Shown: positions 7,019 through 53,774, counted from the stretch's first letter. The stretch is 64,000 bases of DNA from Candidatus Latescibacterota bacterium (GCA_965217585.1 OZ244561.1:7232001-7296000); one strand, 5' to 3'. The notes: generated by a model not told the origin, from the sequence alone. Made by a program: numbers and translations.

Positions 7019-7714
7019 ATGGCCAAATTCCCGGCAGTACAAGCCCTCACCTTCGACCTGTTCGGCACCGTTCTCGACTTGGGCGGCAGCCTGACCCCGG
7101 CCATCGCGTCCTATCTGCGCGATAAAGGGTCTTCCGTAGCGCCCGAGCACCTGTGGAACCAATGGCGGGCACGCCAGCGCCTAGAGCAATATCAGGACAA
7201 TATCCTCCTGTTGGGCCACAGCGGCTATTTGGAGACGGTGCAGCGGGCCTTGATCTACGTTTTGGCTTTGGAGGGAATAGACGTGGCCGCAGGGGATGTC
7301 CCCCGGCTCATGGAAGCTTGGCAGAACCTCAACCCCTTCGCCGATGTGAGGGCGGCCCTCGAAAAGCTAAAGAAGCGCTATCGCCTAGTCGCTCTGTCCA
7401 ATGGCGAGGCGGACTTTTTGGCCCATCTGGCGACCAACCGCATTGGCTGGGACTTTGACTGCATTATCTCGGTTGAAGAAGTAGGTGCCTTCAAGCCGCA
7501 TCCTGGGGTGTACCGTCGGGCCGCAACCTCGCTGCACCTAGAAGTGGGACAGTGCATGATGGTTTCAGCCAATTCATTCGACGTGCTGGGGGCACGAGCC
7601 TGCGGCATGAGGGGGGCCTTCGTCAACCGCAACACCCTGCCCTACGAAGAAACGCCGTACCGGCCCGATGTGGAGGTGGGAAATTTTATCGAGCTAACCG
7701 AGGCGCTGCTGTGA
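7019..7714 (+). CDS. Haloacid dehalogenase type II (HAD superfamily)
   Basis: FDLFGT motif I, LSNG, FKPHP, VSANSFD. Confidence 0.85.
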   Translation: MAKFPAVQALTFDLFGTVLDLGGSLTPAIASYLRDKGSSVAPEHLWNQWRARQRLEQYQDNILLLGHSGYLETVQRALIYVLALEGIDVAAGDVPRLMEAWQNLNPFADVRAALEKLKKRYRLVALSNGEADFLAHLATNRIGWDFDCIISVEEVGAFKPHPGVYRRAATSLHLEVGQCMMVSANSFDVLGARACGMRGAFVNRNTLPYEETPYRPDVEVGNFIELTEALL

Positions 7715-7772
7715 AGAAACACGGAAGAAGCGGAAAAGTTGAAAGTGCGAGCCAGAAGATCGAAACCAGGAG

Positions 7773-8672
7773 GTGGATGACATGAGAGACAAAGAATCGG
7801 GAAGAATGGCAGAGCCGGTGGTTATTTCCCTTACCAGGAAGGAAACGGAATCTCGGCACCTGAGTCCCGGACGGCTCAAACAGGCGGTGGGGGCGATCAG
7901 GCGGGACGGATATGTCGTCATCGAAAACGCGGTTCCCCATGAGCCGCTCGATATTCTCCGGGAGAAGATGGATCAGGATTCCAGGGTCTTGATCGATCGG
8001 GAGCAGTGGGGCGGCGCCGGAGGTCTCAAAGGTCACCTGCAACAGGGACCGCCTCCGTTCGCCCCCTTTGTCTTTCGCGAGATTGTCGCCAATCCGTTTG
8101 TGATTCAGGTCAACACCGCCCTCCTCGGCGAGGGAATCTTCAACAGCTTTTACAACGGAAACACCAATTGTCCCGGCAGCGGCACCCAGCCGTTGCACCG
8201 AGACGGGCCTCATCTATGGCCCGGTCACGAGCCCGCCCACCCGACCGCGTGCGTGGTGGCGAATATCTCTCCGCTCGATGTGACGGAAGAGAACGGGGCA
8301 GTGGAGCTGTGGCCGGGCACGCATCTGCACACCTTCCCGGAAACGGTGATCGACAAGGAAACCGAAGAGGCGCAAAGGAAGGTTTTTTTCCCCGTAAGCG
8401 GGTGCGCGAAAAAGGGAAGCGTGCTCATCCGGGACGTACGGCTCTGGCATCGAGGGGTTCCGAATCGTTCCGATCGGCCCCGGCATATGATCGCCCTGGT
8501 CCAATGCATCTCCTGGTACAGGAATCGCGGACCGCTGATGTTCAACACCGGTTGTGAAAAGGCCTTCCCCGATAATTGCGGTCTGAATCACAATGCGGAA
8601 TTCATTGAGGATCCGATTGATTATCTGTTTCTCAATCGGCCAGGGAGCAAAAAGAAGAGGATGAAGGGGTAA
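7773..8672 (+). CDS. Phytanoyl-CoA dioxygenase (PhyH) family Fe/2OG enzyme
   Basis: QPLHRD (HxD), ENGAVELWPGTH, LWHRGVPN...R; true start could be ATG at 7782 or 7806. Confidence 0.85.
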   Translation: MDDMRDKESGRMAEPVVISLTRKETESRHLSPGRLKQAVGAIRRDGYVVIENAVPHEPLDILREKMDQDSRVLIDREQWGGAGGLKGHLQQGPPPFAPFVFREIVANPFVIQVNTALLGEGIFNSFYNGNTNCPGSGTQPLHRDGPHLWPGHEPAHPTACVVANISPLDVTEENGAVELWPGTHLHTFPETVIDKETEEAQRKVFFPVSGCAKKGSVLIRDVRLWHRGVPNRSDRPRHMIALVQCISWYRNRGPLMFNTGCEKAFPDNCGLNHNAEFIEDPIDYLFLNRPGSKKKRMKG

Positions 8673-8697
8673 GGGGTCACTGTCCCCTCTCAAATAT

Positions 8698-8738
8698 TAC
8701 ACAGGGCCGTCCAAGCTGGTATTGGACGGCCCTGTGTA
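8698..8738. terminator. Perfect hairpin between convergent genes (putative terminator)
   Basis: TACACAGGGCCGTCCAA-gctggta-TTGGACGGCCCTGTGTA, 17-bp stem; no strong U-tract. Confidence 0.65.
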
Positions 8739-8769
8739 GTTGGGCTAGTTGGGCTGCTGCCGTCCGGCT

Positions 8770-11700
8770 TCAACCGCCAAAATTATAGGAAACAGCCAGC
8801 TTCACTCGCCGACCCTTGGGGTCGTGGGTAAAGCCGTCGTACGCTTGTTCGATGTTGACCAGCGGCGGCATAGTGTCGAGCAGGTTCATCCCCGACAGCG
8901 CGATATTGACTCCCTCGGACAAGTCCCACAGCAAGCTCACATCCCAAGTGACGAACGATTCAATGGTACCGAATTCGTCTTTAATGGCCGCATTATCGGA
9001 GTTCATCGATCCCCGGTCCTCGTACGACGAAATGTAGTTCAAGAAGCTCACGAGGCGGTAGGCTTCCCAGTAATAGCCCGCCGACACCTGCCCCTTCAAC
9101 TTCGGTAGCGAGGTTGCAATGGGATTGCCAAAGTTCAGATAGCCAGCCGCGTCTGCCCCCTCTTGCAGCACCAAATCGCCGAGCATCAGGGCCTTCGTCC
9201 GGTACTCCAGCGTGTACGTAGCGTCCAAGTTGAGCGAAAATTCCCCCACTCCGGCGTCCGTGTGCCCGCCCAGATGCAAATCAATCCCCGAGGTCTTGAC
9301 CCCTGGCCAATTGATGATATCAACTTGCACCCGCTCCAGTTCGGAGGCTGCGCACGTGCCCTTGCCGATCCCGTCCGGGCAGACAATGAACTGCTTCAGG
9401 GCCTCATTATTGGCTTCATCGGCATATAAGGCGGTAATGGCCCCGTGCGGCATGGAGCCGATGACATCCTTGAAATCGTAGCTCCAGTAGTCAAACGTCG
9501 CATCAAAGCCCTCCTCGGTGACTAAGACAAAGCCCGCATTATAGGTAAAAGCCTGTTCGGGCTTGAGGTCCTTGCTGCCGATTCGGTCCACCGTTTGATA
9601 GGCACCCGTTTCATTGATCCACTCGAGCGTCGAAAGCGGGCTTTCATTCACATCGTCCAGCGATGGCGTGCGAAACGTCGTCTGTACCGAGCCGCGCAGA
9701 AACACGGATTGAGTCGGCGATTCCACTAGCTGGTAGCGCCACCCAAACTTGGGATCGAAACTGCTCGCCACATCGTGGAACTCGTAGTTGGCGGCGAGTT
9801 GGGTATCAAAGCGCGATCCCAAGCTCAGGGGAATCTCGGCAAAGACGCGATGCACCGTCTGCGATTCATCATACGGCCGATTCACATTGGTGAACGCATA
9901 GGGCCCGAACCTGTCCTCGGCTGAGCAGGTGTCATCACCCACCACCGGACAGGGGTTGATGGTCACGTCACCCTCGTCGTTGGGATCGCCGCTGGCATTG
10001 AGCAGGCGGAACTGGTAGCCGGCCGCGTAACTGGCGACGTCCTCGACCCAAGTTCCGCTCAGCGTCGCATCGGCGACCAGCAGATCCGCGGTACTCTGTA
10101 GATCGACTTCCTGATTGAGCCAGTGCCGCAACTCGGGGCTGTTGGCAAGGTTGGCGCGGTAATCGGGATTCGCTTGAGTTGCAAAATCCGCGCCATATTG
10201 ATCCGCGAACTCGATGGCATTGCCGAAGGGGTTGTAGTACTGGCAGTCGCCCTGACCCGCCACTTGGTCGTTGATTGGGCCGAGCCGCATCCCAGCAAGA
10301 GACGAAAGATCGGCATCCACGCCAACGTCGCAATCGGGTCCGCCAAAACCGCGGAAGCCGAGGAACAGCCGCTCGATGTACACCCCCGGCAGATTGTAGT
10401 TGCCCTCGGTGCGGGAATAGGACAGACCTAGATCAAAATGGGTCTCTCGATCACCGAGTGCCACAAAATCGCCATTGGCGGAAGCCGCCACGCGCCACGT
10501 GCGGGAGTCGCGGCCCAGTATGCGCCCAGGACCCGAGTTGCCAAATGGACGGCCATTGAGATACCAGTTATCGCCGCCTTGGCATTCGTTGTAGTACAGG
10601 TCGCCTTCCTCAGCGCCGTAGTCCGCACAGAATGCCTCCCGGCCTGGGTGGTTGGGCGCGACCTCCATGATGCTCGTATCTGTCAAGGGGAAGGGAGGGT
10701 ACGAAGGCGTGGTGTACCACTCGGGAATCTCAGCCTCGGCCCACAAGCCCTCAAGGTGATACTCCGTGCCATTATCCAGCGCACCGTTGATCTCGGTAAA
10801 AGCACGGATATGGCTCATGTCCTCGATCAGGTTCTCATACTGCTGATAGCGGAAGCGGCAAGTCCAAGATTCCCGAAAGCCGCCAAACTGCTCGCAACGC
10901 GGGGCGTGGATGGCAGCGGTCCAGGGGGCCGGAGCACCAACGGCGAAAGTGCCCGGGTTCCCCAAGCTCGACCATCCAAGGCGCTGCCCGCCGCCGTGCC
11001 ACGGCTGCAGCAGGTAGTCCCTCTCGGAGGCTGGCAACTTTTGCCGTCCCCTCCATTCCCCAGCAACAATCGCATGGGCACTGCCGAGTTTCCCACCCCA
11101 GATCGCGCCGGCGTTGGTATCGCCCGCACCAGCGAGATACTCGTGCGCGGCCGAGACCTCAAAACCCTCGAAGTCATCGCGCGTCAAGAAATTGGCAACA
11201 CCGGCCACTGCATCCGATCCATAGATGGCCGAGGCTCCCTCCTTGAGCACCTCGACGCGGTCAATGGCGATGGCGGGGATGGCATTTACATCGACAAAGC
11301 GCCCCCCGATCAAGCGCGCCGGGACATAGGTCTGGCGGCGGCTGTTGATCAACACCAGCGTCCGCGAGGCTCCTAGTCCGCGCAGGTTCACGTTAGCAAT
11401 GCTCTCGGAAAGAGTGGCGGCTTGGTTGGCGTTGTACCAACTGCTGCGCTCGCCGATCACCCCGTGGCTGGCGCTCAAGTTTTTGAAGAAATCAACCGCC
11501 TGCGGCGACCCTTGTTCGGCCATCTTGTCCCGGCCGGTCACCGCAACTGCGTAGGGCAAGTTGATGGGAGATTCCTTAAAGGCGGTACCGGTCACCACCA
11601 CTTCTTCCAATTCGACCGCCTTGGCCATCAGCTCCAGTTCGACGGTCGTGGTCTCTCCCGCGACGACTACGACGGTGGTGGCTGCGCTTTCGTAGCCGAT

Positions 11701-11940
11701 CAATTCGGCTGCGAGCAGATGCTCGCCAGCGGGGACATCGGCCATGGTGAAACGACCGTCCGCGTCCCATACCGCGCTCTTGTTCAACTCCGCGATATAG
11801 ACTTGGGCGAGATCCAGCATCGTCCCTTTCTCAGCATCGACGACAATGCCCATAATGGTACCCGTTGATTCGGCCTGAGCGTGGGCGGCGGGCAAGGCCA
11901 AAAGTAGGGTCAGAAAAATGCACTTGCTCCAGAGTTGCAT
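8770..11940 (-). CDS. TonB-dependent receptor with N-terminal carboxypeptidase-regulatory-like domain
   Basis: Signal peptide, GTIMGIVVDA domain, EEVVVTG, plug NLRGLGASRTLVLIN, EVLKEGASAIYGSDAVAGV, C-terminal YNF. Confidence 0.9.
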   Translation of the reverse strand: MQLWSKCIFLTLLLALPAAHAQAESTGTIMGIVVDAEKGTMLDLAQVYIAELNKSAVWDADGRFTMADVPAGEHLLAAELIGYESAATTVVVVAGETTTVELELMAKAVELEEVVVTGTAFKESPINLPYAVAVTGRDKMAEQGSPQAVDFFKNLSASHGVIGERSSWYNANQAATLSESIANVNLRGLGASRTLVLINSRRQTYVPARLIGGRFVDVNAIPAIAIDRVEVLKEGASAIYGSDAVAGVANFLTRDDFEGFEVSAAHEYLAGAGDTNAGAIWGGKLGSAHAIVAGEWRGRQKLPASERDYLLQPWHGGGQRLGWSSLGNPGTFAVGAPAPWTAAIHAPRCEQFGGFRESWTCRFRYQQYENLIEDMSHIRAFTEINGALDNGTEYHLEGLWAEAEIPEWYTTPSYPPFPLTDTSIMEVAPNHPGREAFCADYGAEEGDLYYNECQGGDNWYLNGRPFGNSGPGRILGRDSRTWRVAASANGDFVALGDRETHFDLGLSYSRTEGNYNLPGVYIERLFLGFRGFGGPDCDVGVDADLSSLAGMRLGPINDQVAGQGDCQYYNPFGNAIEFADQYGADFATQANPDYRANLANSPELRHWLNQEVDLQSTADLLVADATLSGTWVEDVASYAAGYQFRLLNASGDPNDEGDVTINPCPVVGDDTCSAEDRFGPYAFTNVNRPYDESQTVHRVFAEIPLSLGSRFDTQLAANYEFHDVASSFDPKFGWRYQLVESPTQSVFLRGSVQTTFRTPSLDDVNESPLSTLEWINETGAYQTVDRIGSKDLKPEQAFTYNAGFVLVTEEGFDATFDYWSYDFKDVIGSMPHGAITALYADEANNEALKQFIVCPDGIGKGTCAASELERVQVDIINWPGVKTSGIDLHLGGHTDAGVGEFSLNLDATYTLEYRTKALMLGDLVLQEGADAAGYLNFGNPIATSLPKLKGQVSAGYYWEAYRLVSFLNYISSYEDRGSMNSDNAAIKDEFGTIESFVTWDVSLLWDLSEGVNIALSGMNLLDTMPPLVNIEQAYDGFTHDPKGRRVKLAVSYNFGG

Positions 11941-12032: not shown

Positions 12033-12146
12033 TAGTGGCTCTGTCCAATGGCGAGGCGGGCTTTTTGGCCCATCTGGCAGCCAACCGCATTGGCTGGAAC
12101 TTCGACCGCATTGTCCCGGTTGAAGAAGTAAGTACCTTCAAGCCGC
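12033..12146 (+). repeat. Diverged 114-bp copy of an internal segment of the HAD gene (7386-7499)
   Basis: Ungapped alignment, about 11 mismatches by hand; encodes ALSNGEAGFLAHLAANRIGWNFDRIVPVEEVSTFKP. Confidence 0.9.
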
Positions 12147-12152
12147 CCCCTT

Positions 12153-12497
12153 TCACCGAGCCAATCTCTCCCGTAGCTGCTGGCCTGAGATCGTCCCGCT
12201 TAGAAACTGCAAAACACTGTAGTGAACCATCGACTCTAAGTGCAGGCCAAAAAGAACCCCTCTATGTAGAGCATCAGGAAGAAGTAGCCATGCAGATTGA
12301 TCGCCAATCCTGGGGAAGTCTATCGACTTATTTGGCCCAAAATAGCGTATCCCTAACGTGGGATGTTCCACATCATCTTCTCTCCATCCAAGAGCAACTA
12401 TTGCCCACTCCTGCTTGATGTGTTTATAGACCACAGCATAAGGACCACCAATGCGATTTCTCGGGTTCCTTACAGCCAAGACGGTCTCGTTGTCCAC
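12153..12497 (-). CDS. Hypothetical protein (114 aa)
   Basis: GTG start after GGGGGAGAG; AT-richer than the backbone; no recognised motif. Confidence 0.5.
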   Translation of the reverse strand: MDNETVLAVRNPRNRIGGPYAVVYKHIKQEWAIVALGWREDDVEHPTLGIRYFGPNKSIDFPRIGDQSAWLLLPDALHRGVLFGLHLESMVHYSVLQFLSGTISGQQLRERLAR

Positions 12498-12641
12498 GGT
12501 ACTCTCCCCCCATTGAAGGGTCGAGCGGACCTCGATAGCGGCAGCGGCGACCGCGGCCGGGACGGGTGTGAGGTCTATGTATTCCGGCCGACGGTCGCTC
12601 CCCCGAAGTCGTCCGCACGGCGCAAAAGCCGTCCATGAGCA

Positions 12642-19159: not shown

Positions 19160-19199
19160 AGTATCTCCTCTACCAAGAAAGTCATCGTGCTGTTCAGAA

Positions 19200-19478
19200 T
19201 CATGACACCATTTCAGTGATATTTCTATCATCCAAAAAAGCAACAGGCTCTTCTGCTTTACCATTTTCCCACATAAGGGAATAAAACCAAATGCCACTCT
19301 CACCAATGCAGAAATCTGCGGGAGTAAAAGTCATTTTTGAGTCCAGTGGCGGATCAGACTTTTCGGGATTGTATTCTGCCGGCCAGCCAAATGCCTCACC
19401 GACCCATACCTGTCCTTTATCATGAAGTTTTTTCGCAAACACCACGACATCGTCGATGTTTGGAATGGCGACGGGCAC
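19200..19478 (-). CDS. Hypothetical acidic protein (92 aa)
   Basis: Starts 8 nt after the nuclease stop; AT-rich. Confidence 0.6.
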   Translation of the reverse strand: MPVAIPNIDDVVVFAKKLHDKGQVWVGEAFGWPAEYNPEKSDPPLDSKMTFTPADFCIGESGIWFYSLMWENGKAEEPVAFLDDRNITEMVS

Positions 19479-19486
19479 AATGGGTA

Positions 19487-19963
19487 TCAGTGCTCGATAA
19501 CGGGAAAGCTCGTATCCCAGTCATTCCTGTATTGCGACAAGGGGTACCCATTACAGGTAATGCTGTTCGCCTCGGAACGCAACCGCAATACAAGCCTACC
19601 TCTGTTTTCGCTCCCCATGCCATCCGCCCGGTAACGCTCTAGAGCCTCTCGGTCAATAACGACAAAATTATCCCAATAATCTTGAAGCCGAATGGCAAAA
19701 ATATACGTTACATCTGGAATCATCTGCTTCTGAAGCTGCGAGAGCGGAAGATTAAACTGTGCGCTGTATCCGTACTTATGCAATTTTGCCACAGCCGTCT
19801 TCACTTGTACTCGACGTAGATCACCATTTCTATCGTGGACGACGAAAATATCGTCGCCCACATCTACCTCTGGAATGGCTGTATTCCAACCCCGAAGAAG
19901 AAGCTCTGCCATAACTGCTAAATGACCTGCTCTACCAGTGTACAGGTTGATCCTTTTAGGCAT
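19487..19963 (-). CDS. PD-(D/E)XK-superfamily nuclease
   Basis: GRAGHLAVMAELLLRGW...PEVDVGDDIFV...RVQVKT. Confidence 0.7.
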   Translation of the reverse strand: MPKRINLYTGRAGHLAVMAELLLRGWNTAIPEVDVGDDIFVVHDRNGDLRRVQVKTAVAKLHKYGYSAQFNLPLSQLQKQMIPDVTYIFAIRLQDYWDNFVVIDREALERYRADGMGSENRGRLVLRLRSEANSITCNGYPLSQYRNDWDTSFPVIEH

Positions 19964-21146
19964 ATTGTGTCGAAGGCTCAAATAAGGTATCCAGTGTCCT
20001 AGTATCTACAAATACGACTCCACCAAATTCCTGAAGTTCTGTTGCTGAATAGCCGGTTAGGATCTCTACAGTGTGTTTCCATGTTGAGCCATGAAAAAAC
20101 TCAAGGTGCCGTTCAGTCTCATATGAGACAAACACACTTGCAGGCAGCTCCCCTAAATCCTGTATTTTTAGCACTCCTCGACTCCAAGGATCTAGCGCAC
20201 ATGTATATCCATCCAGTTGTTCGGTTACATAAATCGCAACCTTGGACATCTGTCTGAATTTATGCACAATTTGTTCTTTTTCATAAGATCTTATCAACAG
20301 CTTTGATGCATCGCCAAACATCCACCGTCGATAGTAAGCCTGTTCTCCTTTTGTTTCGCGAGAGGCAATCGCATCTGCGAATGTCAATAAAACTAAGTAG
20401 TCTAAGTCATATTTTATGTTGGCCAATTTTTTATCTGATATGCTCCTAAACTTATCTTCACCTCGGCATTCTCTATCACAACATACCGCAAGAAGCGATT
20501 TAGATAGATGCCACAGGACCCAAGTGGGATCTACTTTATCAGGATTTTGAACAACGTTCTTCAATACTAACCGAATATTCTCTGGGTCATTGATCAAATT
20601 ATGACAGACCTGAACAACTTCCCTATCATTGGGATCCCTGTTTCTAATCTTTTCTATATCTTCTTCGCGAAATGGTGATTGAGAAACTGCAAGGTTCCGT
20701 AATAATTCAAGACTGCTCTTACTTTCTGTTTCTTCCTTCCAATCCTTAATTAGTGTCTCCAAATCGTCAGATTGAAATTCTGAATTTTCTTTTAACATCT
20801 TCCGCAGGTTTTCAGTTTTTTTATCATCTACGGGATCACCGTACGGACGATGATCTTCAAGCTCAACCTTGCACATCTTGGATACATGTTCACAGACCTC
20901 GATAGCATCCCTGTACTCCACAAGCCGGGGTATTGCTAGGGACCATTGATTGTGATCAGATGTGATAAGCTCACGAGCTAAAGTATCGATTAGCATGATG
21001 CGACCACCCTGTTCACATATGGTGCGAAGCGGCGCACCATCCCTTTTCATGCCGCGAATATAACTAGCGTCGATGATAATGCGTGGATTTATCACTTGTC
21101 CATTACTGTCAACCCGCTTATCAACCTGCTTGATCTCGCCTTCCAT
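19956..21146 (-). CDS. Hypothetical protein with possible PIN-like N-terminal domain
   Basis: IIIDASYI...RE...DLDY...IASRE acidic pattern; strong RBS GGAGG. Confidence 0.6.
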   Translation of the reverse strand: MEGEIKQVDKRVDSNGQVINPRIIIDASYIRGMKRDGAPLRTICEQGGRIMLIDTLARELITSDHNQWSLAIPRLVEYRDAIEVCEHVSKMCKVELEDHRPYGDPVDDKKTENLRKMLKENSEFQSDDLETLIKDWKEETESKSSLELLRNLAVSQSPFREEDIEKIRNRDPNDREVVQVCHNLINDPENIRLVLKNVVQNPDKVDPTWVLWHLSKSLLAVCCDRECRGEDKFRSISDKKLANIKYDLDYLVLLTFADAIASRETKGEQAYYRRWMFGDASKLLIRSYEKEQIVHKFRQMSKVAIYVTEQLDGYTCALDPWSRGVLKIQDLGELPASVFVSYETERHLEFFHGSTWKHTVEILTGYSATELQEFGGVVFVDTRTLDTLFEPSTQYA

Positions 21147-21250
21147 GGTTCTTACCTCCTGTCAACCTCCGTAACTTCCATTGGCCAAATTAACCATCCT
21201 CCTGTTTTGCGCTTCCTGACCTCAGCCAGACTTTACCACTGGGATACGAC

Positions 21251-21677
21251 TCACCCGTCATGACCATCAGGATGTGCTAATCTCAACTCTCTTAGGTGAT
21301 TCTTCAGTCGCTTGGCCATAGGTTTCATCATTGCCGCAGTCACGCCGGCGGAAACAAGTCCGCCAACAATTGGCACGACTTTTGACACGCTACGCGCAAA
21401 GGTGTTTTTGGTGACGTTAATTCCAATCCATTTGCCAATCTGTTTGATTAGCGGGTAGTACGCAGTCCTAGTGAGCGCCTGCCTCGGAAGACGTCGCGCA
21501 ATTTCGCTAGCAAATCGCTCAGCCACCTCGCTTATTACTTTGTTAGCCACCTGAGCACCCATCATCACTCCGATGAGCAGTGTAATCTTCGCCTTGGTCT
21601 CTTCGTCAGCCTCGTCTTCCTTCAGTAAATTATGGAGTTGAGAATAAAGAAAGCTATTGCGTTCAACTTTCGCTCCA
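21251..21677 (-). pseudogene. 5'-truncated EcsC-like protein fragment
   Basis: ALTRTAYYPLIKQIGKWIG...SKVVPIVGGLVS resembles the C-terminal half of that family; no proper start; cut at the islet boundary. Confidence 0.5.
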
Positions 21678-21678
21678 T

Positions 21679-22479
21679 CTACCAAGAAAGCTTCTCAGAC
21701 AAGTTGTGAAAAAAGTACTTATCGTCGAGGTATATCAGCCGCGCCGTATGTGCGGCTTGGCCGACGTACACCTCTTGCTCGGGGGCTAGGCTGCATATCT
21801 CGTGGCCATCGGCAATGAGCGCCACGTGACTGTCTAAGGTCTCGGAGCTGACGCACAGCCGCACCCGTTTCTCGGCCGGCAGGATCAAGGTCCGCGACGT
21901 GAAGTTGTATTCGTTGATGCCGTCGAGCAACATGCAGCGCACCTCGGGCATGACCAGCGGCGCACCCATCGACAGCAACAGTCCGGTGCTACCCGTCGGC
22001 GTGCCGACGACCACGCCGTCGCCGCGAATGGTGCGGATTTTGGCGTCGTCAACGAAGACGTCCGTAGAGAGCATTTTGTGGTGGGCCCGCAAGGTCACCT
22101 CGTTGAAGACCAGACTCTCGCCGCCGGGATAGCGGCAAGAAAGCACCAAGCGCTCGCTGACGAAGTACTGGCCATCAACTAAGAGCTGGACGATGCGCGC
22201 CAAGTCCTTGCGGTCCCCAGCGGTCAAAAAGCCAACGGTGCCGAAATTGATCGCCAGCACCGGCCACTGTGGGAAACGAGCAAAGGCGCGGAGCACCGTG
22301 CCGTCGCCCCCGAGCGCAATTACCAAGTCCAGGTCGTCCGGGTGCTCATCTTCCTCGATAAAGCGCACTACAATCCCATGCGCGGCAAAAAGGTCGCGCA
22401 CCTCGGCTACCGGATAGTCCAAATCCCGGTCGCGCGGCAGGACCCCGACCTTTTTTAGTTCGAGTGGCACCGACGCCAA
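21679..22479 (-). CDS. nadK: NAD(+) kinase
   Basis: GGDGT, GTVGFL, NE, GDG...TPTGST. Confidence 0.9.
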   Translation of the reverse strand: MASVPLELKKVGVLPRDRDLDYPVAEVRDLFAAHGIVVRFIEEDEHPDDLDLVIALGGDGTVLRAFARFPQWPVLAINFGTVGFLTAGDRKDLARIVQLLVDGQYFVSERLVLSCRYPGGESLVFNEVTLRAHHKMLSTDVFVDDAKIRTIRGDGVVVGTPTGSTGLLLSMGAPLVMPEVRCMLLDGINEYNFTSRTLILPAEKRVRLCVSSETLDSHVALIADGHEICSLAPEQEVYVGQAAHTARLIYLDDKYFFHNLSEKLSW

Positions 22480-32139: not shown

Positions 32140-32140
32140 C

Positions 32141-42577: not shown

Positions 42578-42650
42578 TACGGCCCCTTGACAACACCTCC
42601 ATAAAGGCTTCTTAATCATTCCGATCCGTACGCGCTATTGCGGCGGAGAG
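42578..42650 (+). repeat. Promoter/leader repeat, copy 1
   Basis: TACGGCC.CTTGACAAC...TCCATAAAGGCTTCT...CCGATCCG.ACGCGCT...GCGGCGGAGAG; also at 44754-44825. Confidence 0.9.
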
Positions 42651-42662
42651 GGAGCGATAAAC

Positions 42663-43985
42663 GTGGACGCGCGACAGGAAAAACTGCTCAGAAGAACCTT
42701 CCTCGACTACCAGTCGACGGCCGAGTTCATGAACAATCCACTCATCGTGTCGCGGGCGGAAGGGCTCTACTACTGGGACACGGACGGGAAACGCTACTTC
42801 GACGGCATCAGCGGGATCTACTCAACCCTGCTCGGCCACCGTCATCCGCGCGTCGAACAGGCCATGCGGGCCCAATGGGACAAGCTCGCCTTCGCGCCGC
42901 CCATGCACGGCACGGCCGACGTGACTCTCGACTTTGTCGAAAAGCTCGGCAGCGTCACGCCCGGCGACCTCAACTACGTGAAAGCTTTCAGCGGCGGCTC
43001 GGAGTCTATGGAGGCGGCGATCAAGTTCACGCGCCAGTATTTCAAGCAGTCGGGCCGTCCGCACAAGTACAAGTTCATCAGCCGCTACCAGGCCTACCAC
43101 GGCGCCACCATGGGAGCCATGGCAGCAAGCGGTACGGGAGAGCGCAAAACCCCATTCGAGCCGGCCCCGCCGGGTTTCCTCAAAGTATTCCCCCCAACTC
43201 ACTACCGCGATCGCTTCGGCGACTGGGATGAGGCGAACCGGTTCGCGGCACAGCAGTTCGAGGATGTCATCATCAGTGAAGATCCGGCGACGGTGGCCGG
43301 CATCATCCTCGAACCGGTGTCGAACACGGGGGGTATCATCACGCCCACGGACGAGTACTTCCAGATCATCCGCGACACCTGCGATCGCCACAACGTCGTG
43401 CTCATCTACGACGAGATCATCACCGGCTTCGGTCGCACGGGAGCGATGTTTGCCGCCCACACCTTCGGGGTGACGCCTGACATCATCTGCGGCAGCAAAG
43501 GGCTGTCGAGTGGCGCCATTCCCCTCGGAGCGCTGATGGCGCGCGAGGGGATGGGGGAGCACTTCTACGAGCCCGGCGAGAACTTCGCCCACGGTCACAC
43601 TTACGCTGGCCATCCACTAGCCTGCGCGGTCGGCATCGCCGTGGTAGACGAAATCGTGGAGAGCGGCCTCGATGCCCATGCCCGCAAGATGGGCGACTAC
43701 CTCGCCGCCAAGCTCGCAGGCCTGAAAGCGCTCGGCGTCGTGCGGGAGGTGCGGGGCAAGGGGTTGCTGAGGGGGGTTGAGCTGGTGAAGGATACGTCAA
43801 ACCTCGAGCCGTTCCCGGAGCTGGGCCGGGCGCTCAAGAAGACGGCCCTGCAGAACGGAGTCATCCTGCGGGTTGATCCGAGCTGGTTCGCCGTCGTGCC
43901 CGCCCTCATCATCGACAAGCCCCAGGTTGACGAGCTCTTCGACCTCGTCGAGAAAAGCCTCAAGGACGCACTCGACCAGGTCTGA
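42663..43985 (+). CDS. Class III PLP aminotransferase
   Basis: SGGSES, YHGAT, ILEP, DEIITGFGRTG, SKGL, HGHTY. Confidence 0.9.
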   Translation: MDARQEKLLRRTFLDYQSTAEFMNNPLIVSRAEGLYYWDTDGKRYFDGISGIYSTLLGHRHPRVEQAMRAQWDKLAFAPPMHGTADVTLDFVEKLGSVTPGDLNYVKAFSGGSESMEAAIKFTRQYFKQSGRPHKYKFISRYQAYHGATMGAMAASGTGERKTPFEPAPPGFLKVFPPTHYRDRFGDWDEANRFAAQQFEDVIISEDPATVAGIILEPVSNTGGIITPTDEYFQIIRDTCDRHNVVLIYDEIITGFGRTGAMFAAHTFGVTPDIICGSKGLSSGAIPLGALMAREGMGEHFYEPGENFAHGHTYAGHPLACAVGIAVVDEIVESGLDAHARKMGDYLAAKLAGLKALGVVREVRGKGLLRGVELVKDTSNLEPFPELGRALKKTALQNGVILRVDPSWFAVVPALIIDKPQVDELFDLVEKSLKDALDQV

Positions 43986-44037
43986 TCGGCGGCTGCGTAG
44001 ATTCCTTTGAGCCACCCCTGAACAAGGAGATGCAAAC

Positions 44038-44745
44038 ATGGCGACGATACAACTTCCAGTGAGATGGTATTCCGGCTACGGCCCCGACAATCCCGACGGA
44101 AATCGTTTCGACGACCTCGACCTGCCGTTGGAGACCACTGCCTTCATGATCGTGGATTCGGATTGCGGCAAGGGGAATCCCTGCGTCGAGGAGGGGATTG
44201 CGCCCGCGCTGAAGTCCGCCCGCGCCGTCGGCATGCACGTGTTCTTCATCCACAACGACTTCTCTCTGTGTGACGAACCGGGCAGTATCAAGCGCGAGAT
44301 CCACGGCACCCGCTGGGGCAACAAAGATGCCGCCGACCGCCCAGCACCAGAGCGCAGACCGTTGCTACCGAACTACTCGCCGTCGATTCAGCCCCTCGCC
44401 CACGAGCCAGACTTTCCCAAGCGGGAGTGGTCGGGGTTTCACGAGACCCACACCGACTATCACCTGCGCTGCCACGGCATCAAGACCCTGATCGCCGTGG
44501 GATTCTCGCAGCGGTCCTGCCTCTACTTCACCTGTGCCGGCGCGGTGGAACACAACTACCGGGTGGTGATGTTGCGGGACTGCACCCATTCGGCTGAGTA
44601 CCCCGATACAGTGGACGACAGCCTGCCGGAAGGGGGATGGCTGCGCAAGATCATGCTGCGGAACTTCGAGCACGTGGTGGGCTACACCTCCACGTCGGCG
44701 GAGTTCGTCCAGGCCTGTTCCGCGCTGACGGAGGCCCAACCATGA
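44038..44745 (+). CDS. Isochorismatase-family cysteine hydrolase
   Basis: MIVD, PKREWSGF, VGFSQRSC, LRDCT. Confidence 0.8.
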   Translation: MATIQLPVRWYSGYGPDNPDGNRFDDLDLPLETTAFMIVDSDCGKGNPCVEEGIAPALKSARAVGMHVFFIHNDFSLCDEPGSIKREIHGTRWGNKDAADRPAPERRPLLPNYSPSIQPLAHEPDFPKREWSGFHETHTDYHLRCHGIKTLIAVGFSQRSCLYFTCAGAVEHNYRVVMLRDCTHSAEYPDTVDDSLPEGGWLRKIMLRNFEHVVGYTSTSAEFVQACSALTEAQP

Positions 44746-44753: not shown

Positions 44754-44825
44754 TACGGCCTCTTGACAACGCGTCCATAAAGGCTTCTCATTGTCCCGAT
44801 CCGCACGCGCTGTCGCGGCGGAGAG
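44754..44825 (+). repeat. Promoter/leader repeat, copy 2
   Basis: Diverged copy of 42578-42650 directly before the PhyH gene. Confidence 0.9.
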
Positions 44826-44847
44826 CAGCGTAATAGGAGCACGAGTG

Positions 44848-46373: not shown

Positions 46374-46422
46374 GGTGCGGAGTCGGAGGAGTAAGCCGAC
46401 GAAGTGAGCAGCCCCAGTCTGT

Positions 46423-47259: not shown

Positions 47260-48319
47260 CGTCGCCCCGTGGCAGGAACTGGCTGCGGATCTCGTCGGCC
47301 GCTTCGTGCGCCCGTTCGGGATGGGCCTTTAAGTCGAGGTAGGCTTGAACAGGATGAACACAGCGTATGCCCTCCACCTCGTCGGCACCGTGAAAGACGC
47401 CGGCATCGTTGGGCACGACGAGCCAAGTATTGGCTCCCCTCGCCCCCTCGCGGAAACCGAGCGCTCTCGTCAGCCCCGTTGACGGCACCTCTTCAAGGTA
47501 CACGGTCGAGAGACGAAAGCTCGTGTACCGCGTCCATACCCACGCGGCGGCTAAACCCGTCACGGCGTAAGGTACGGTGCCCTCAGTCAACGTCCATGCG
47601 ATTCCGCGTGTGAGGCTGTCGCCGGATGTGGCTGCGGTGTGGCCAGGTATTAGCAGCCTGTGCCTATCAAAGCGATACTCCTCGTGCCAAGCATCGAGCA
47701 GCCTGTTCGCATCGCCGATCGCAATGCCGCCTGCTCGACGGACCACGAGTTCGCTTTCGGCCAGCTTTCTGATGACCCTGCTCACGTATCCCTCGTCTAA
47801 GCCGGTGGCAACCGCGAGGTCGCGTTGACGAGGTGCCTCGGTAGGGTGCATCAGTAGCCAGCGAGCGATCCGCGATCCCTTCGGGCCGAACGCACTTTCG
47901 ACCCGCCCAGGGCGGCGGTAGCGGTTGGCGTGCCCAAGTACCTCGACATAGAGACCGGGAGCGACGATACTCGTGTTGCCAGATAGGTCCAGCCACCCTA
48001 CACCGTATTGCTCGCAGTGCGCTCGGCCCGCCTCTCCCATATAGGGAACGGCCACCAGAGGAATCACCGAGCAGGGCAAATCGCTGGTCGCCCGCTTTAA
48101 TTGCTGGACCGCATGGGCCACTGGCCCGAGAGCACCGGAATCCTTCCATTCTAATGCAAAGAAATACCGTCCCGCTGTGACGACAGAATCGAAGAGGAAT
48201 GAACTTCCCCGGCAGTTTGCATCGTACCGTATAGAACTTTCCTTCCCCCATTTTTGGAGGATCTCGGCTAGCCTCTCCGATGCTTGGCGGATGGCCTGAT
48301 TTTGAAATTGCCGTTGCAT
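47249..48319 (-). CDS. AbiEi-like antitoxin / HTH transcriptional regulator
   Basis: WLDLSGN, HTH RQRDLAVATGLDEGYVSRVI, HPVQAYLDL...ERAHEAA. Confidence 0.75.
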   Translation of the reverse strand: MQRQFQNQAIRQASERLAEILQKWGKESSIRYDANCRGSSFLFDSVVTAGRYFFALEWKDSGALGPVAHAVQQLKRATSDLPCSVIPLVAVPYMGEAGRAHCEQYGVGWLDLSGNTSIVAPGLYVEVLGHANRYRRPGRVESAFGPKGSRIARWLLMHPTEAPRQRDLAVATGLDEGYVSRVIRKLAESELVVRRAGGIAIGDANRLLDAWHEEYRFDRHRLLIPGHTAATSGDSLTRGIAWTLTEGTVPYAVTGLAAAWVWTRYTSFRLSTVYLEEVPSTGLTRALGFREGARGANTWLVVPNDAGVFHGADEVEGIRCVHPVQAYLDLKAHPERAHEAADEIRSQFLPRGDDAW

Positions 48320-48321
48320 AC

Positions 48322-48373
48322 TTGTCTATATAACGTATATTGCTCGAATATGCAATTCCCTTTATATAGACAA
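48322..48373. promoter_or_regulatory. Perfect 12-bp inverted repeat immediately upstream of the antitoxin gene
   Basis: TTGTCTATATAA-28 nt-TTATATAGACAA. Confidence 0.7.
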
Positions 48374-48481
48374 TTCGAAAAACTCGACAAAGGGAATATG
48401 CTTGGTGGTTCTATCCTATGTATTCTCGCCACTAAGAGGGTCGCGCCAACACTCCCCCAATCGCCCTGAACGCGCAAAAAA

Positions 48482-49687
<1,206 letters not shown>

Positions 49688-49778
49688 AGCGGGACACAGC
49701 GGGGCGGCCGGGGTTTATATCGTGCACCTACACTGTCCTAGCGGCGAACAAACCCGGCGACTGCTCTTGCTCAAGTAG
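49688..49778 (+). pseudogene. 91-bp remnant of a YWTD/FlgD gene 3' end
   Basis: Ungapped match to 53600-53690 (about 15 mismatches); encodes ...GVYIVHLHCPSGEQTRRLLLLK*. Confidence 0.85.
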
Positions 49779-49896
49779 CGGCCGGGTGTACGGAAAGCAG
49801 CATGAGCGGCAGATATACATCTTGTAAACGCAGACTCGCCATGTATCTTCTGTATCTTCTCAGACACGTATAATTCGTGAACGCGGAGGGCTAAAA

Positions 49897-50127
49897 ATGA
49901 AAGATACATCTGTAGAAAAAGAAATTCTCGATGAGATCCATAAATTGGGAAAAGGTCAACAAGCGGAGGTGCTGGAATTCGTTCGTTCGTTAGCAAAGTC
50001 CGAGATGGAAGGCGCACCCGGCAAGACTCTGCTGCGCTTTGCAGGAACGATAGATAGAGAAGACTTGGACAAGATGGCTGAAGCGATCCAGGCCGATTGC
50101 GAAAGCGTAGATCCCAATGAATGGTAG
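49897..50127 (+). CDS. Putative VapB-type antitoxin
   Basis: Small acidic ORF overlapping the PIN toxin start. Confidence 0.7.
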   Translation: MKDTSVEKEILDEIHKLGKGQQAEVLEFVRSLAKSEMEGAPGKTLLRFAGTIDREDLDKMAEAIQADCESVDPNEW

Positions 50128-50515
50128 ATACCTACTGGATACCAATATCATCATCGCTCTATTTGCTCAAGAGGAACTAATTCAGGAACGCCTACTCCAA
50201 GCCGTTGAAATTTTCTTGTCCAGCATTGTCTTGGGCGAACTGTATTATGGCGCTGAGCGATCCATCCGCGTGGATGGAAACATTCAGCGCATAAATGAAT
50301 TCGCCTCTACAACGGTGGTCATTGGCTGCAATCAGGAAACAGCTCGACAGTATGGCCGGATAAAGAACGCGCTTCGGGCAAAGGGTCGTCCCATACCGGA
50401 GAATGATATTTGGATAGCTGCTCAGGCCCTGCAACATCAAGTGACTTTGGTCGCACGAGACGATCACTTTCAAGAAATTGACGCGCTTTCTCTGGAACGG
50501 TGGGAACGCAACTAA
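50117..50515 (+). CDS. vapC: VapC PIN-domain toxin
   Basis: YLLDTNII, GELYYG, ENDIWIAA, RDDHF. Confidence 0.9.
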   Translation: MNGRYLLDTNIIIALFAQEELIQERLLQAVEIFLSSIVLGELYYGAERSIRVDGNIQRINEFASTTVVIGCNQETARQYGRIKNALRAKGRPIPENDIWIAAQALQHQVTLVARDDHFQEIDALSLERWERN

Positions 50516-50645
50516 TCTGACCGTGGGACGCCCGCGTCTCTCGCCCATCTTGATGCTGCCGGGCGAAAGGCATATCCTCGCTGCAATATGTCAATCCTCT
50601 CCTTGTTTAAGTCAGTTTCCACGCTATATTTCTGACATTATACCA

Positions 50646-51248
50646 ATGGATACGACCATGCCAAGCCTATCCCAGCATATCGCCAAACGCGCCGCCGAGC
50701 TGCCCGAGGGGTCGCTATTGTGCCCAAAGGCGTTGCTCCACCTCGGCAGCAGAGCGGCAGTCGATCAAGCGCTGTCGCGCCTCGCACGTCGTGGACAATT
50801 AATGCGGATCTGTCAGGGCGTCTATGTCCGGCCTATAGAGACTCGCTTCGGTCTGCGCCCGCCCGCGGTTGAGAAGGTCATTGAAGCGCTGGCGGAACTG
50901 TGGGGGGAAACCATTGTTCCCTGTGGCGGTGCGGCGGCGAACTTCCTCGGCCTCACCACTCAAATACCGGTGCAGTCGGTGTACCTGACCTCTGGCCCCA
51001 GCCGTCGGTTGAAACTCGGCGCACTGACAGTGCATTTGCGTCATGCCCCGCGCTGGCAGTTGGTAGCACCGCACCGGCCGGCCGGCGATGCGGTTCGCGC
51101 CCTCGCTTGGTTGGGAGAGATTGAAGAGAACCTCGGCGCGGTTGCGAGCAAGCTCTCTCCTGCCGACCTCGACGAGTTCGTTGCGTTGCGCGTCCTGATG
51201 CCAGCGCGGATTGCAGAACTCGTGAGCGCACGGATCGTCAATGCCTGA
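50646..51248 (+). CDS. AbiEi-family antitoxin (DUF6088-like)
   Basis: GSRAAVDQALSRL, GVYVRP, AANFLGLTTQIP, YLTSGPSR; partial inverted repeat GTCAG...CTGAC at 50611-50636. Confidence 0.8.
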   Translation: MDTTMPSLSQHIAKRAAELPEGSLLCPKALLHLGSRAAVDQALSRLARRGQLMRICQGVYVRPIETRFGLRPPAVEKVIEALAELWGETIVPCGGAAANFLGLTTQIPVQSVYLTSGPSRRLKLGALTVHLRHAPRWQLVAPHRPAGDAVRALAWLGEIEENLGAVASKLSPADLDEFVALRVLMPARIAELVSARIVNA

Positions 51249-51497
51249 TGCGCTATTCCAGTCCCTTTCGGCCAGCTCCGAGAGAAGGACGTTGCTGGCA
51301 GTTGGATAGATTACGAAGCGGCGGTCTCGGGTGGCTTGCAACTGCTACCAGAGGGCCATGCTTATGAGGTGCTTGCCGACGACTACGAAAGAATGTTGAG
51401 CGACGGCATGCTCTTCGACGACGATGAACCTTTTGACGACTTGATTGCAAGGTGTGCAGATATAGAAGAGAGGGCGAATCGCCGCCAACCAACTTGA
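51241..51497 (+). pseudogene. AbiEii-like toxin with central deletion
   Basis: ATG overlapping the antitoxin end gives MPDALFQSLSAS; an out-of-frame C-terminal piece follows (REKDVAGSWIDYEAAVSGGLQLLP...DDYERM...PFDDLIARCADIEERAN*). Confidence 0.75.
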
Positions 51498-51573
51498 ATT
51501 CGCCCAAGTCCGCCGAATCGGGCAAAACCCGCGTCTCTCGGTCTTGAGGCTGCCGGGTGAAAGGAGCCTACCT

Positions 51574-53697
51574 ATGATCCATTCTATTGTCAGTCGAAAA
51601 ATCACTGCGTTTTTGTTCGCAATGGCGTGGTTGGCCCTCGTCGGGCACGGCACCGGCTACGGTCAGCCGCCGGGCGAGGAGGGCAAGATCTACTGGGCGA
51701 ACCCACAAAGAGGCATCCATCGGTCCAGCCTCGACGGCACCAATGTTGAACAACTCGTCAAGCCAGAATTGAGGTATCCGGCCGACATCGCGCTCGATGT
51801 ATTGGGAGGCAAGATGTACTGGACGGATAGGTGGGGAGAAGGAGGCATCTATTGGTCTGACCTAGATGGCTCAAATCTCAAACCCTTCATGGACGATGAC
51901 TATAGCTCGGAAGGGGCAACAAACATCGCGCTCGACGTGGACGGAGGCAAAATCTACTGGACGTCGGTGGTCAGCGGCGGTGATGCCTTTGATGGTTGGG
52001 TGGCGCGGGCAAATCTAGACGGCTCCAACAGCGAAGTCCTCTTTAATAGATCGGATCTATGGGATATTGCTCTGGATTCGGTCGGAGGCAAAGTATATTG
52101 GACCGACTGGTATTCTGCTCGCATCACACGAGCCGATCTCGACGGACAAAACGTCGAATATGACTATATCCGCCCAAGTTTGGCTTTTCCCAAGGGTATT
52201 GCCCTCGACGTGGACGGAGGCAAAATTTACTGGACGGAAGCGGGGACGATCCAACGGGCTGACCTCGATGGACAAAACATCGAAGAGATCCTCACCGTAT
52301 TAGATGGCTACCCTGAAGAAATCACCCTCGACATGGACCGGGGCAAGGTTTACTGGACCAATCCAGTCACGCAGACGATTCAGCGAGTTGATCTCGATGG
52401 CCAAAACGTCGAACACCTCTTCGACTTAGAGGACGACGTCCACTACATCCACTCGGGACCCCGAACAGGCATCGCCCTCGACGTGAACGGGGGCAAAATT
52501 TATTGGACGGACTCGGGGCCGGGGACGATCCAGCGCGCCGACCTCGACGGACAAAACCGCGAAGTCCTCTTCGATCCAATAGTGAGGGAACCATACGGCA
52601 TTGCCCTAGACACGGACAAGATGTACTGGACCGACGAGGTGAAGGGGACGATCCAGCAAGCCGACCTAAACGGCGAAAACATCGAAGTTCTGATCACCGG
52701 CTTAAATTGTCCCAAGGGAATTGCCTTGCTAGACGGAGACAAGATCTACTGGGCGGACGCAGGACCAGGGGAATACTGGGGGTACTCGGAAACAGGGAGA
52801 CGGGTTTGGGTGCAACCAGAAACAGGGAAAATTCAGGCGGCTAACTGGGACGGCTCCAACGTCAAAGATGTCCTCACCGGCTTGAGCTATCTTGAGGATA
52901 TTGCCCTCGACGCAATTCGGGGTAAGATCTACTGGAGAGAGAGCTTCCTAGGAGAGATATCGGAGCACGCCATTCAGCGAGCGGACTTGGACGGGTCCAA
53001 TGTCGAAGAGATCCTCATCTCGAAACTAACGGGTTCCCCTAGTGTGGGAACAATGGCTCTCGATGTACTGGCGGGCAAGATATACTGGACAGACAAATAC
53101 GGGGGGGCGATGCAGCGGGCGGACTTAGATGGCTCCAATGTCGAAGAGATCGCCACTAATGATCCTTCTTGGGATCGCTACACAGCCTTCGCTCTGGACC
53201 TAATTGGAAACAAAATATACTGGTCGAGTCTGCTTGACGTCCCTACGAGGGAGTATGAAGATCTGGTGGACTTCTTCCGGTCCAACTTAGACGGCTCCAA
53301 CGTCGAGGAGATATGGACGACAACGACCCGTACAGGTGGTCCAACGGATATCGCCTTAGACATCTCCCACCCAACCGCGATCTCGACGCCCGACACCACG
53401 CCGACGATACCAGCCACCAGCGGCCTAGACCCCAATTTCCCCAACCCCTTCAACGCCAGCACTCAGATCACCTACCACCTAGCCACCCCCGGCTCAGTGC
53501 GGCTGACGATCTACAATACCTTGGGCCAACCCGTGAGCACGCTTGTGAACCAATTCCAGCCCGCCGGCTCGTACCAAGTCCGCTGGAACGCCCGCGACCA
53601 GCGGGGCACGGCTTGGCGGCGGGGGTCTATCTCGTGCGCCTGCACTACCCCGGCGGCGAGCAGACCCGGCGACTGCTCTTGCTCAAGTAGCTGCTAG
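51574..53697 (+). CDS. Second YWTD repeat surface protein; FlgD-like tail frameshifted near 53612
   Basis: Signal peptide, many GGKIYWT/RADLDG repeats, NFPNPFN; canonical end LAAGVYLVRLHYPGGEQTRRLLLLK* lies in another frame (stop at 53690). Confidence 0.85.
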   Translation: MIHSIVSRKITAFLFAMAWLALVGHGTGYGQPPGEEGKIYWANPQRGIHRSSLDGTNVEQLVKPELRYPADIALDVLGGKMYWTDRWGEGGIYWSDLDGSNLKPFMDDDYSSEGATNIALDVDGGKIYWTSVVSGGDAFDGWVARANLDGSNSEVLFNRSDLWDIALDSVGGKVYWTDWYSARITRADLDGQNVEYDYIRPSLAFPKGIALDVDGGKIYWTEAGTIQRADLDGQNIEEILTVLDGYPEEITLDMDRGKVYWTNPVTQTIQRVDLDGQNVEHLFDLEDDVHYIHSGPRTGIALDVNGGKIYWTDSGPGTIQRADLDGQNREVLFDPIVREPYGIALDTDKMYWTDEVKGTIQQADLNGENIEVLITGLNCPKGIALLDGDKIYWADAGPGEYWGYSETGRRVWVQPETGKIQAANWDGSNVKDVLTGLSYLEDIALDAIRGKIYWRESFLGEISEHAIQRADLDGSNVEEILISKLTGSPSVGTMALDVLAGKIYWTDKYGGAMQRADLDGSNVEEIATNDPSWDRYTAFALDLIGNKIYWSSLLDVPTREYEDLVDFFRSNLDGSNVEEIWTTTTRTGGPTDIALDISHPTAISTPDTTPTIPATSGLDPNFPNPFNASTQITYHLATPGSVRLTIYNTLGQPVSTLVNQFQPAGSYQVRWNARDQRGTAWRRGSISCACTTPAASRPGDCSCSSSC

Positions 53698-53716
53698 CCC
53701 GCGTCTCTCGCCCGTC

Positions 53717-53745
53717 TTGACGCGGTCCGGCAAAACGCATACCCT
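53717..53745 (+). promoter_or_regulatory. Putative uvrC promoter inside junction repeat 4
   Basis: TTGACG-17 bp-TACCCT; equivalent TTGATG-17 bp-TATCCT at 50550-50578. Confidence 0.5.
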
Positions 53746-53774
53746 CGTTACAATATGTCAACCCACATCCCTTT

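Follow-up and report, generated by a model that had tools for sequence, protein, structure and literature searches.

Diverged copies of flanking sequence bound inserted genes at core-gene junctions of a Candidatus Latescibacterota genome

Introduction

Genes inserted between direct copies of their target sequence have been described as insertion with long target duplication (Furuta, Abe and Kobayashi 2010, PMC2853133, which cites Nobusato et al. 2000 as its reference 37). In the part of that paper on which we draw, the insert is smaller than 20 kb, the direct repeats are long (>30 bp), variable and unique in the genome, no other mobile-element gene is present, a relative has the empty site, and the repeats, which commonly cover a start or stop codon, do no harm to the target. 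Most reports come from naturally competent species, and for the mechanism the paper offers a hypothesis only. In Vibrio, arrays of type VI secretion system (T6SS) immunity genes arise by sequential displacement, which the portion of PMC5361080 cited here attributes to homology-facilitated illegitimate recombination. Here we describe four sites at which diverged or short direct repeats of local sequence bound inserted genes in one 64,000-nucleotide stretch of DNA from a Candidatus Latescibacterota bacterium (GCA_965217585.1, OZ244561.1:7232001-7296000), hereafter the window.

The pattern is real and biologically produced, and its mechanism is interpreted here from comparison of genomes. We give a probability of roughly 0.6 to the reading that the repeats are scars of additive gene uptake by the host recombination machinery, without an element-encoded recombinase. 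The architecture itself is already known, matches insertion with long target duplication and would not surprise a specialist. In the literature searched we found no description of the pattern in Latescibacterota, and subscription papers and supplements may hold cases.

The window is bases 7,232,001-7,296,000 of a 7.32-Mb single-contig genome (G000), a metagenome-assembled genome (MAG). Its UvrC is 92-98% identical to the UvrC of relatives, whose records are mostly titled Candidatus Latescibacterota. We searched 40 relatives, of which 24 are congeners (many of them single contigs, ~5-12% apart in core genes), and compared the matching region in 16 relatives, with an extra 400 kb from each of G001, G010 and G012 and with regions of three genomes from other families as controls. 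Repeats were checked by self-BLAST and local alignment. Synteny with the relatives breaks ~73 kb ahead of the window, so we used local chains and not one collinear chain.

Stacked modules between rlmI and uvrC

The left anchor of the array is an RlmI-like SAM (S-adenosylmethionine) methyltransferase gene (48482..49687, plus strand, as are all features of this array), for which the best NCBIfam match, RlmI, is below its cut-off and the stop is intact. The right anchor is uvrC (53778..55628; TIGR00194). Between them the core of the rlmI end is found four times (at 49665, 50531, 51528 and 53698), with pairwise matches of 28-80 bp at 84-90%, in agreement with the original prediction, which was made from the sequence of the window alone. 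Copy 1 (49664-49692) is 29 bp long. It runs into the remnant 3' tail of a YWTD-FlgD gene (49688..49782; 83% to 53600-53694), where G022 has a whole gene of this kind, and then comes module T (49897..50515), made up of a small open reading frame (ORF) with no Pfam match and a PIN/VapC-like gene that matches Pfam PIN, with the VapC models below cut-off. Together the two resemble a toxin-antitoxin pair. Copy 2 (50530..50597), which consists of the rlmI end and the uvrC upstream region, is 84% identical over 68 bp to 53697-53764, and with it a 67-bp copy of the uvrC upstream region heads module D. This module (50658..51497) has an AbiEi-like gene (PADLOC AbiEi) and the remnant of its AbiEii partner, identified from the partner in G010, which is AbiEii; ~770 bp have been deleted here in G000, and G010, G011 and G012 hold the extra 772-774 bp. 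Copy 3 (51528..51564; 85% over 40 bp to copy 2) heads module Y (51574..53697), which by Pfam encodes an LDL-receptor class B (YWTD) repeat protein with an FlgD-like tail. Copy 4 (53697..53764) is the uvrC upstream region, and its -35-like hexamer corresponds to the rlmI stop codon of the empty site.

The relatives show that this site is a variable one. In 19 close relatives with both anchors placed, the site is empty in 2 (G007, L100) and filled in 17, with fillings that range from a 189-bp remnant to 18 kb. Modules T, D and Y recur in these fillings in changing order: T-D-Y in G000, Y-D in G011, D-T in G002, D-Y in G003, and also Y-T-D. The copy variants are cassette-specific, in that each module keeps its own version across genomes. 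True stacking in G000 occurs only here; at nadK it is seen only in relatives such as G001. At the empty rlmI-uvrC site the rlmI stop overlaps the -35-like hexamer upstream of uvrC, and at nadK the stop abuts the next ribosome-binding site, so only duplication of the junction would let an insertion leave both genes whole.

Contigs of sequencing run X19, which may be the source sample of G000, bridge the junctions at 50531, 51528 and 53698 with 3, 0 and 0 differences; these are contigs and not long reads, and the 49665 junction is not among the pieces shown. In two runs there is also a joint from 53694 back to 50531, as would result from a strain in which Y precedes D or from an excised circle. 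In one run 46382-48487 is skipped.

The 18-kb filling of G004 (L064:3420-17402) has SNF2 helicase, DUF1156, DuOB, two DUF488 and HEPN-DUF499 genes and is probably a defence island. Other cargo at this site (L071, L101, L074, L084, L073) includes insertion sequence (IS)-type transposases and leucine-rich-repeat, T5orf172 and UDG-family proteins. The IS transposases lie inside the arrays of G001 and G013, where we take them to be later passengers. A second YWTD-FlgD gene is found at 35890-37975, behind an HD-domain gene, as two ORFs separated by an apparent frameshift. The YWTD gene at the rlmI site of G011 is 84% identical to this copy and 72% to the copy at the rlmI site of the window, which suggests movement or conversion between the two sites.

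The HAD, 42578 and nadK sites

The other three sites are separate loci, and across all four the spacing between the outer copies is 2.2-4.6 kb. Empty sites were found among the relatives for every one of the four, and alternative cargo also exists, both of which the original prediction proposed to look for, but the HAD and 42578 copies are old and have the same cargo in relatives, so the sites are not all recent or variable. Invariant cargo between the same repeats, the outcome that was to count against repeated uptake, is thus seen at these two sites and not at rlmI-uvrC. The three longer repeats are diverged and not identical (90% at HAD, ~85% at 42578 and 84-90% at rlmI), as predicted, and they have no match at another locus except for one 22-bp match of the HAD repeat (E 0.016).

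At the first site the host anchor is a HAD hydrolase gene (7019..7714, plus strand; TIGR01428 over cut-off). A stretch inside it (7386-7499) aligns with 12033-12146 over 114 bp at 90% identity, which bears out the predicted HAD fragment pair. The second copy belongs to a spare fragment (12033..12164, plus strand), a remnant of the HAD 3' half with an internal deletion, and the cargo between the copies (7806..11940) is, by Pfam, a PhyH-family gene on the plus strand and a TonB-dependent receptor gene (8770-11940) on the minus strand. G005 has the empty site: the cargo is absent and HAD is almost directly joined to the 15767 region. G000, G001, G010, G012 and G022 have the remnant in common, and the last ~33 bp of HAD are still present behind the spare in G001, G012 and G022, so the spare was at the outset the 3' half of the gene and has since been shortened by deletion. 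It is one old fragment, from a single old event with fixed cargo.

At the second site a copy of the promoter-like region of the PhyH gene at 44848 (42578..42660, plus strand; ~85% to 44754-44833) lies ahead of a class III aminotransferase gene and an isochorismatase-family gene (42663..44745, plus strand; Pfam). The repeat is 73-83 bp long, and the region directly before the PhyH gene (44754..44833, plus strand) is the single copy in G007 and G004. Promoter function of the pair is putative and is proposed from a -35-like hexamer only. Both copies and the same aminotransferase-isochorismatase cargo occur in 9 of 14 relatives, and the insertion is a single event, old and fixed where present. While the promoter-like pair stands, we reject the 18-bp "stop/start junction" pair (44731 and 45637) that had been counted with it: it is probably a chance match, as good a one being found in 3% of random 200x200 searches, and in G012 the stretch reads on into a 3.4-kb block that is absent from the window.

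At the third site all features are on the minus strand. The nadK 3' end (21679..21690, in the gene at 21679-22470) is the proximal copy and is followed by low-GC cargo (19200..21678; GC 0.41-0.52), the first ORF of which is a 5'-truncated PADLOC PDC-S30-like gene. A second, distal copy of the final 12 nadK bases (19170..19181) then precedes the start of the next gene and its ribosome-binding site. This repeat has only 12-13 identical bases, and an equally good match arises in 9-15% of size-matched random searches. In 5 of 13 relatives, however, the cargo is missing and nadK is joined directly to the next gene at exactly the repeat core, and because of this position we accept the repeat as real although by itself it is near chance. 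The predicted duplication of the nadK stop region thus stands, as a very short one. Eight relatives have fillings at nadK, and their left junctions are of several kinds. There are three copies in G001. The distal junctions resemble remodelled products of one origin.

No restriction-modification families were detected in Pfam or PADLOC scans, where the nadK cargo gave only a sub-cut-off PD-(D/E)XK match. Some relatives have spare flank copies that are absent from G000: the end of an HD gene, ~108 bp (G012, L041/L040), the HAD end, 53 bp (G009, L063), the flank at 935-1070, 136 bp (G001, L033), and the start of the gene after nadK, 70 bp (G019, L053). Two blocks of the window, 12164-15737 (a hybrid sensor kinase) and 39291-42488 (GH32 and a fibronectin-III block), are unmatched in the regions from the 16 relatives. 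A glutamine synthetase-like gene and three glutamate-synthase-like genes (Pfam) are found at 2569-6871 and by their layout form a putative methylamine (N-methylglutamate) pathway locus.

Genome-wide census and share of gene gains

For a census of G000 we used a seed-and-extend search with 10-mer seeds and our own gene calls. Once arrays and in-frame pairs were removed, 510 near direct pairs remained, or 408 after merging; subtracting 205 dispersed-family, 38 paralog-neighbour, 7 long and 7 same-gap pairs left 151 locus-unique direct pairs at 95 loci, compared to 6 inverted ones. The predicted genome-wide excess of near direct repeats is therefore present. Distance controls gave 5 pairs at 30-40 kb and 0 at 100-110 kb. 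The median pair is 51 bp long, 91% identical (the 90th percentile of identity is 1.0) and 2.5 kb apart, and a few survivors are protein-repeat debris, for example near 1,114,000. Stops and starts are touched by 123 and 151 of the 510 pairs, compared to random means of 69 and 72, but we give this enrichment no weight because in-frame intragenic pairs had been removed first and it is partly built in.

In a density comparison, which was run without the genome-uniqueness filter, the direct/inverted loci per 100 kb were 1.75/0.5 in G000, 2.25/0 in G001, 1.25/0.25 in G010 and 1.0/0.5 in G012, and in the controls 5.25/3.25 (G025), 3.0/2.0 (G030) and 2.0/2.0 (G036). At 26 uvrC loci of other bacteria the values were 0.92/0.37.

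We also compared G000 with its relatives at variable segments. There were 132 clean indels of at least 250 bp, 131 of them scorable, on 89 breakpoints. At 9/89 breakpoints (5/73 outside the window) there was a terminal repeat in register that exceeded the 99th percentile of random. Most breakpoints (60/89) lie within 30 bp of a gene boundary, compared to 9% of random positions. A direct copy of the flank anywhere inside the variable segment was present at 29/118 sites, several of which are protein repeats or tandem paralogs, and an inverted copy at 0 (331 of 334 segments tested). In the part of PMC2884548 available to us, a study of three species, 10-18% of small variable segments are flanked by repeats of at least 5 bp, which is a different size class. 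Flank-copy insertion is thus a real yet minority route of gene gain.

An AbiLi-like AAA ATPase (1281-2492) and an AbiE-like pair (46423-48319) are patchy among the relatives. Their third-position divergence is 0.03-0.075, compared to 0.10-0.18 in core genes.

Origin of the second copy

In 63 pairs one copy is in a well-supported gene, and in 36 of these 63 the spare is downstream of the 3' end of the gene. Decay of an identical duplicate predicts that 26-28% of the differences fall on second codon positions. The observed share is 0.124 for the 33 intergenic 3'-end spares (95% bootstrap 0.088-0.168) and 15.5% over all 55 intergenic spares; between orthologs it is 11.9%. The copies therefore diverged mostly while both were coding, in two lineages, and this codon-position result favours a donor homology arm from another lineage as the source of the second copy.

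A direction test was small, with 10 sites and 63 differing bases, and its result is mixed; of 11 further genes that were searched for it, 2 yielded DNA of relatives. The base of the spare is present in the working allele of a relative at 32 of the 63 differing positions. G001, the sister genome, is empty at two of the sites, and of the 13 differing bases there its allele has 8 as in the spare and 4 as in the gene.

Between G000 and G002 the third-position difference is 0.086 for module T and 0.062 for module D, compared to 0.168 for core genes, and T lies on opposite sides of D in these two genomes. Compared to core genes, both modules show about half the divergence between G000 and either G002 or G022, and module D of G000 is closer to that of G002 than to that of its sister G001. 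Trees were judged by inspection.

Proposed mechanism

We propose three steps. First, DNA from a related lineage would arrive with a stretch of the target locus, a gene end or promoter, beside foreign cargo. The shared stretch would pair with the chromosome, and the incoming allele would take the working place, so that the resident stretch is displaced behind the cargo as a spare. A single crossover with a circular molecule may make the join, or else homology-facilitated illegitimate recombination with rejoining inside the anchor. Second, the spare would erode by deletion to the part that is still useful, as it has done at HAD. At rlmI-uvrC and nadK, where the gene end overlaps the next promoter or ribosome-binding site, both copies would keep a part. 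Third, each module travels with its own copy, as the pattern across genomes shows, and interspecies recombination, whether in the core flanks or between copies out of register, would swap, delete and stack the modules, so that the arrays differ in order. ComEC and DprA domains are present in G000, with a second, weaker DprA-domain match at G000:C1:6250545-6251072 that likewise occurs in 3 of 4 congeners.

A number of observations weigh against uptake of this kind. The uptake route, the dependence on RecA and a circular or linear donor are matters that we infer. ComEC and DprA are no proof of competence; 10-11 of 14 control genomes have them. The control genomes equal or exceed the direct loci of G000, with a higher inverted background, which gives no sign that the repeats are special to the genus. 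No repeat is found at 80 of the 89 clean indel breakpoints, and the recently exchanged cassettes at 1281-2492 and 46423-48319 have no flank copy in G000. Over the 10 sites of the direction test G001 sides with the in-gene copy at 23 positions, with the spare at 14 and with neither at 4; the in-gene copy leads the spare by 7 to 1 at site 2728264 and by 8 to 3 at the old HAD site. The low divergence of the modules is partly regional, because uvrC itself has changed little and, across all 66 pairs, DUF6088 is as diverged as the core genes (0.148 vs 0.144). In principle all observed module orders could be cut from one Y-T-D-T-Y ancestor, and the ortholog-like differences could also stem from allele exchange after plain target duplication. 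The predicted uptake of flanks from related genomes thus keeps the support of the two-lineage, allele-like differences, but the analysis does not support its being new or special, and it concerns a minority of variable sites.

Alternative explanations

True target duplication is unlikely. In this model the cargo goes into a DNA break or staggered nick as a patch and ends up with a copy of the local sequence on each side. The copies would be identical at first and become allele-like through later recombination. Some pairs are indeed 100% identical (for example, pairs of 46, 53 and 54 bp), and the authors of PMC2853133, in the part cited here, favour a role of double-strand breakage. The younger pairs (at least 93% alike), however, are also ortholog-like, with a second-position share of 0.098 that has a wide interval (0-0.21, n=23), the bases of about half of the differing spare positions recur in working alleles of relatives as described above, and the cargo here is mostly not a nuclease.

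We consider it rather unlikely that the spare copies are working parts of self-perpetuating, recombinase-free cassettes, in which a module between two copies leaves as a circle with its own homology arm and promoter and re-enters the same site in other species. The 53694-50531 joint matches an expected excised D+Y circle, and a strain with the order Y-D gives the identical joint. If true, this would amount to integron-like stacking and shuffling at ~95 core-gene junctions, carried out wholly by host recombination.

It is quite unlikely that the sites are decayed integrative elements with CIME-like tandem accretion, or products of a recombinase acting in trans such as XerD, with the repeats as attL/attR and the integrase genes lost. 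This idea has in its favour that different cargo at rlmI and nadK is bounded at almost the same point by a recurrent 12-13 bp core, that CIMEs are defined, in the part of PMC5704250 cited, by lost integration genes, kept att sites and tandem accretion, and that G000 has 5 PF00589 matches and two IS110 matches. Yet only 4 of the 95 loci have any of the 5 PF00589 matches within 10 kb, and the 95 targets are unrelated, with 0 cross-locus matches among the 151 repeats, so that the predicted lack of a shared motif holds. Inverted arms, as in attC-like palindromes, occur in 2.6% compared to 6.7% of random sequence, by a general search with the dedicated attC model not run. The repeat length at one gene also varies by genome (92 bp in G000, 359 bp in G001). 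As to the enzymes, a Pfam scan of 64 ORFs of the window gave no transposase, and the only recombinase in the window is the housekeeping tyrosine recombinase gene xerD (55603..56529, plus strand), outside the array; both points had been predicted. XerD scores 347 bits with TIGR02225 (cut-off 330) and 127 with the integron-integrase model (cut-off 265). Integron integrase (TIGR02249) is below cut-off in G000 and 8 congeners, and no serine recombinase or resolvase was found in G000. None of the 10 ORFs scanned in the 18-kb filling of G004 is an integrase, and no integrase-bearing element was seen at rlmI-uvrC in the fillings examined, for which part of the ORFs and genomes were scanned. The window has no tRNA targets and nothing in Rfam at gathering score, and no dif-like sites within 6 mismatches of a dif consensus, which may not be that of this lineage.

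Vertical descent of each site from a single long ancestral array or tandem duplication, trimmed by deletions between repeats and without re-insertion, is very unlikely as a full account. The HAD remnant common to five genomes, the same aminotransferase cargo in 9 of 14 relatives and the visible deletions at or between copies (the FlgD-tail remnant, the loss of AbiEii) speak for it, and such trimming probably accounts for a large part of what later happened at two of the four sites. It is opposed by the divergence of T and D at about half that of core genes (G000 compared to G002, G022 and others) and by the closer match of module D to G002 than to the sister G001, and it fails to explain 17 different rlmI-uvrC fillings or the allele-like differences of the copies.

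An assembly chimera of co-occurring strains is extremely improbable, since many relatives that were assembled separately have the same junctions between modules and X19 contigs bridge three of them, even though the MAG has 6.9% estimated contamination and the sequencing runs examined hold mixed strains, with the 53694-to-50531 joint in two.

Significance and comparison with known systems

Additive uptake by host recombination remains our preferred reading. The initial entry of integrase-free DNA into conserved gene junctions is a question that this data set can address: with many single-contig congeners and ~95 loci in one genome, a donor arm and a true duplication are separable statistically. 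The sites also show how a genome can gain and reshuffle defence pairs and eukaryote-like repeat proteins with the core genes unharmed.

Like integron cassette arrays, the rlmI-uvrC array has small modules in variable order, but there is no integron integrase over cut-off and no motif shared between loci, so the "integron-like" label of the original prediction applies to its look only, without an integron integrase or a common attC-like site. CIMEs (PMC5704250) and additive flexible genomic islands (PMC5217437) likewise have stacked, integrase-less cargo between copies of gene 3' ends; in the parts of these papers cited, they depend on site-specific recombination at few att targets, whereas here neither a version with an integrase nor a common core was found. 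Hotspots of horizontal gene transfer free of mobile genetic elements (PMC5635113) and minimal mobile elements (PMC1797815) share the alternative small gene sets between core genes and the recombination at flanks. As described in the parts cited, they do not require a duplicated flank, and they fit the majority class here (80/89 clean indels). The Vibrio arrays (PMC5361080, in the portion cited) are similar in their integrase-free, anchored addition followed by spread through ordinary homologous recombination. There the effector is replaced and the immunity gene displaced at dedicated loci, whereas here gene ends and promoters are duplicated at ~95 unrelated loci.

The closest likeness is to insertion with long target duplication. 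The sites agree with it in the insert of <20 kb, the genome-unique repeats, the empty one-copy site, the absence of a mobile-element gene in the inserts, and repeats that lie across a start or stop codon and so keep the target gene whole. A repeat of >30 bp is present at HAD (114), at 42578 (73-83) and at rlmI for copy 2 against copy 4 (68); nadK (13 bp) and rlmI copy 1 (29 bp) fall short of it. The copies here are more diverged, and several are stacked at one site in changing order. The cargo described by Furuta and colleagues is restriction-modification, whereas here it consists of toxin-antitoxin and AbiE-like pairs, repeat proteins, a transporter and metabolic genes, and for this reason we call the arrangement a variant of insertion with long target duplication and not a member of it.

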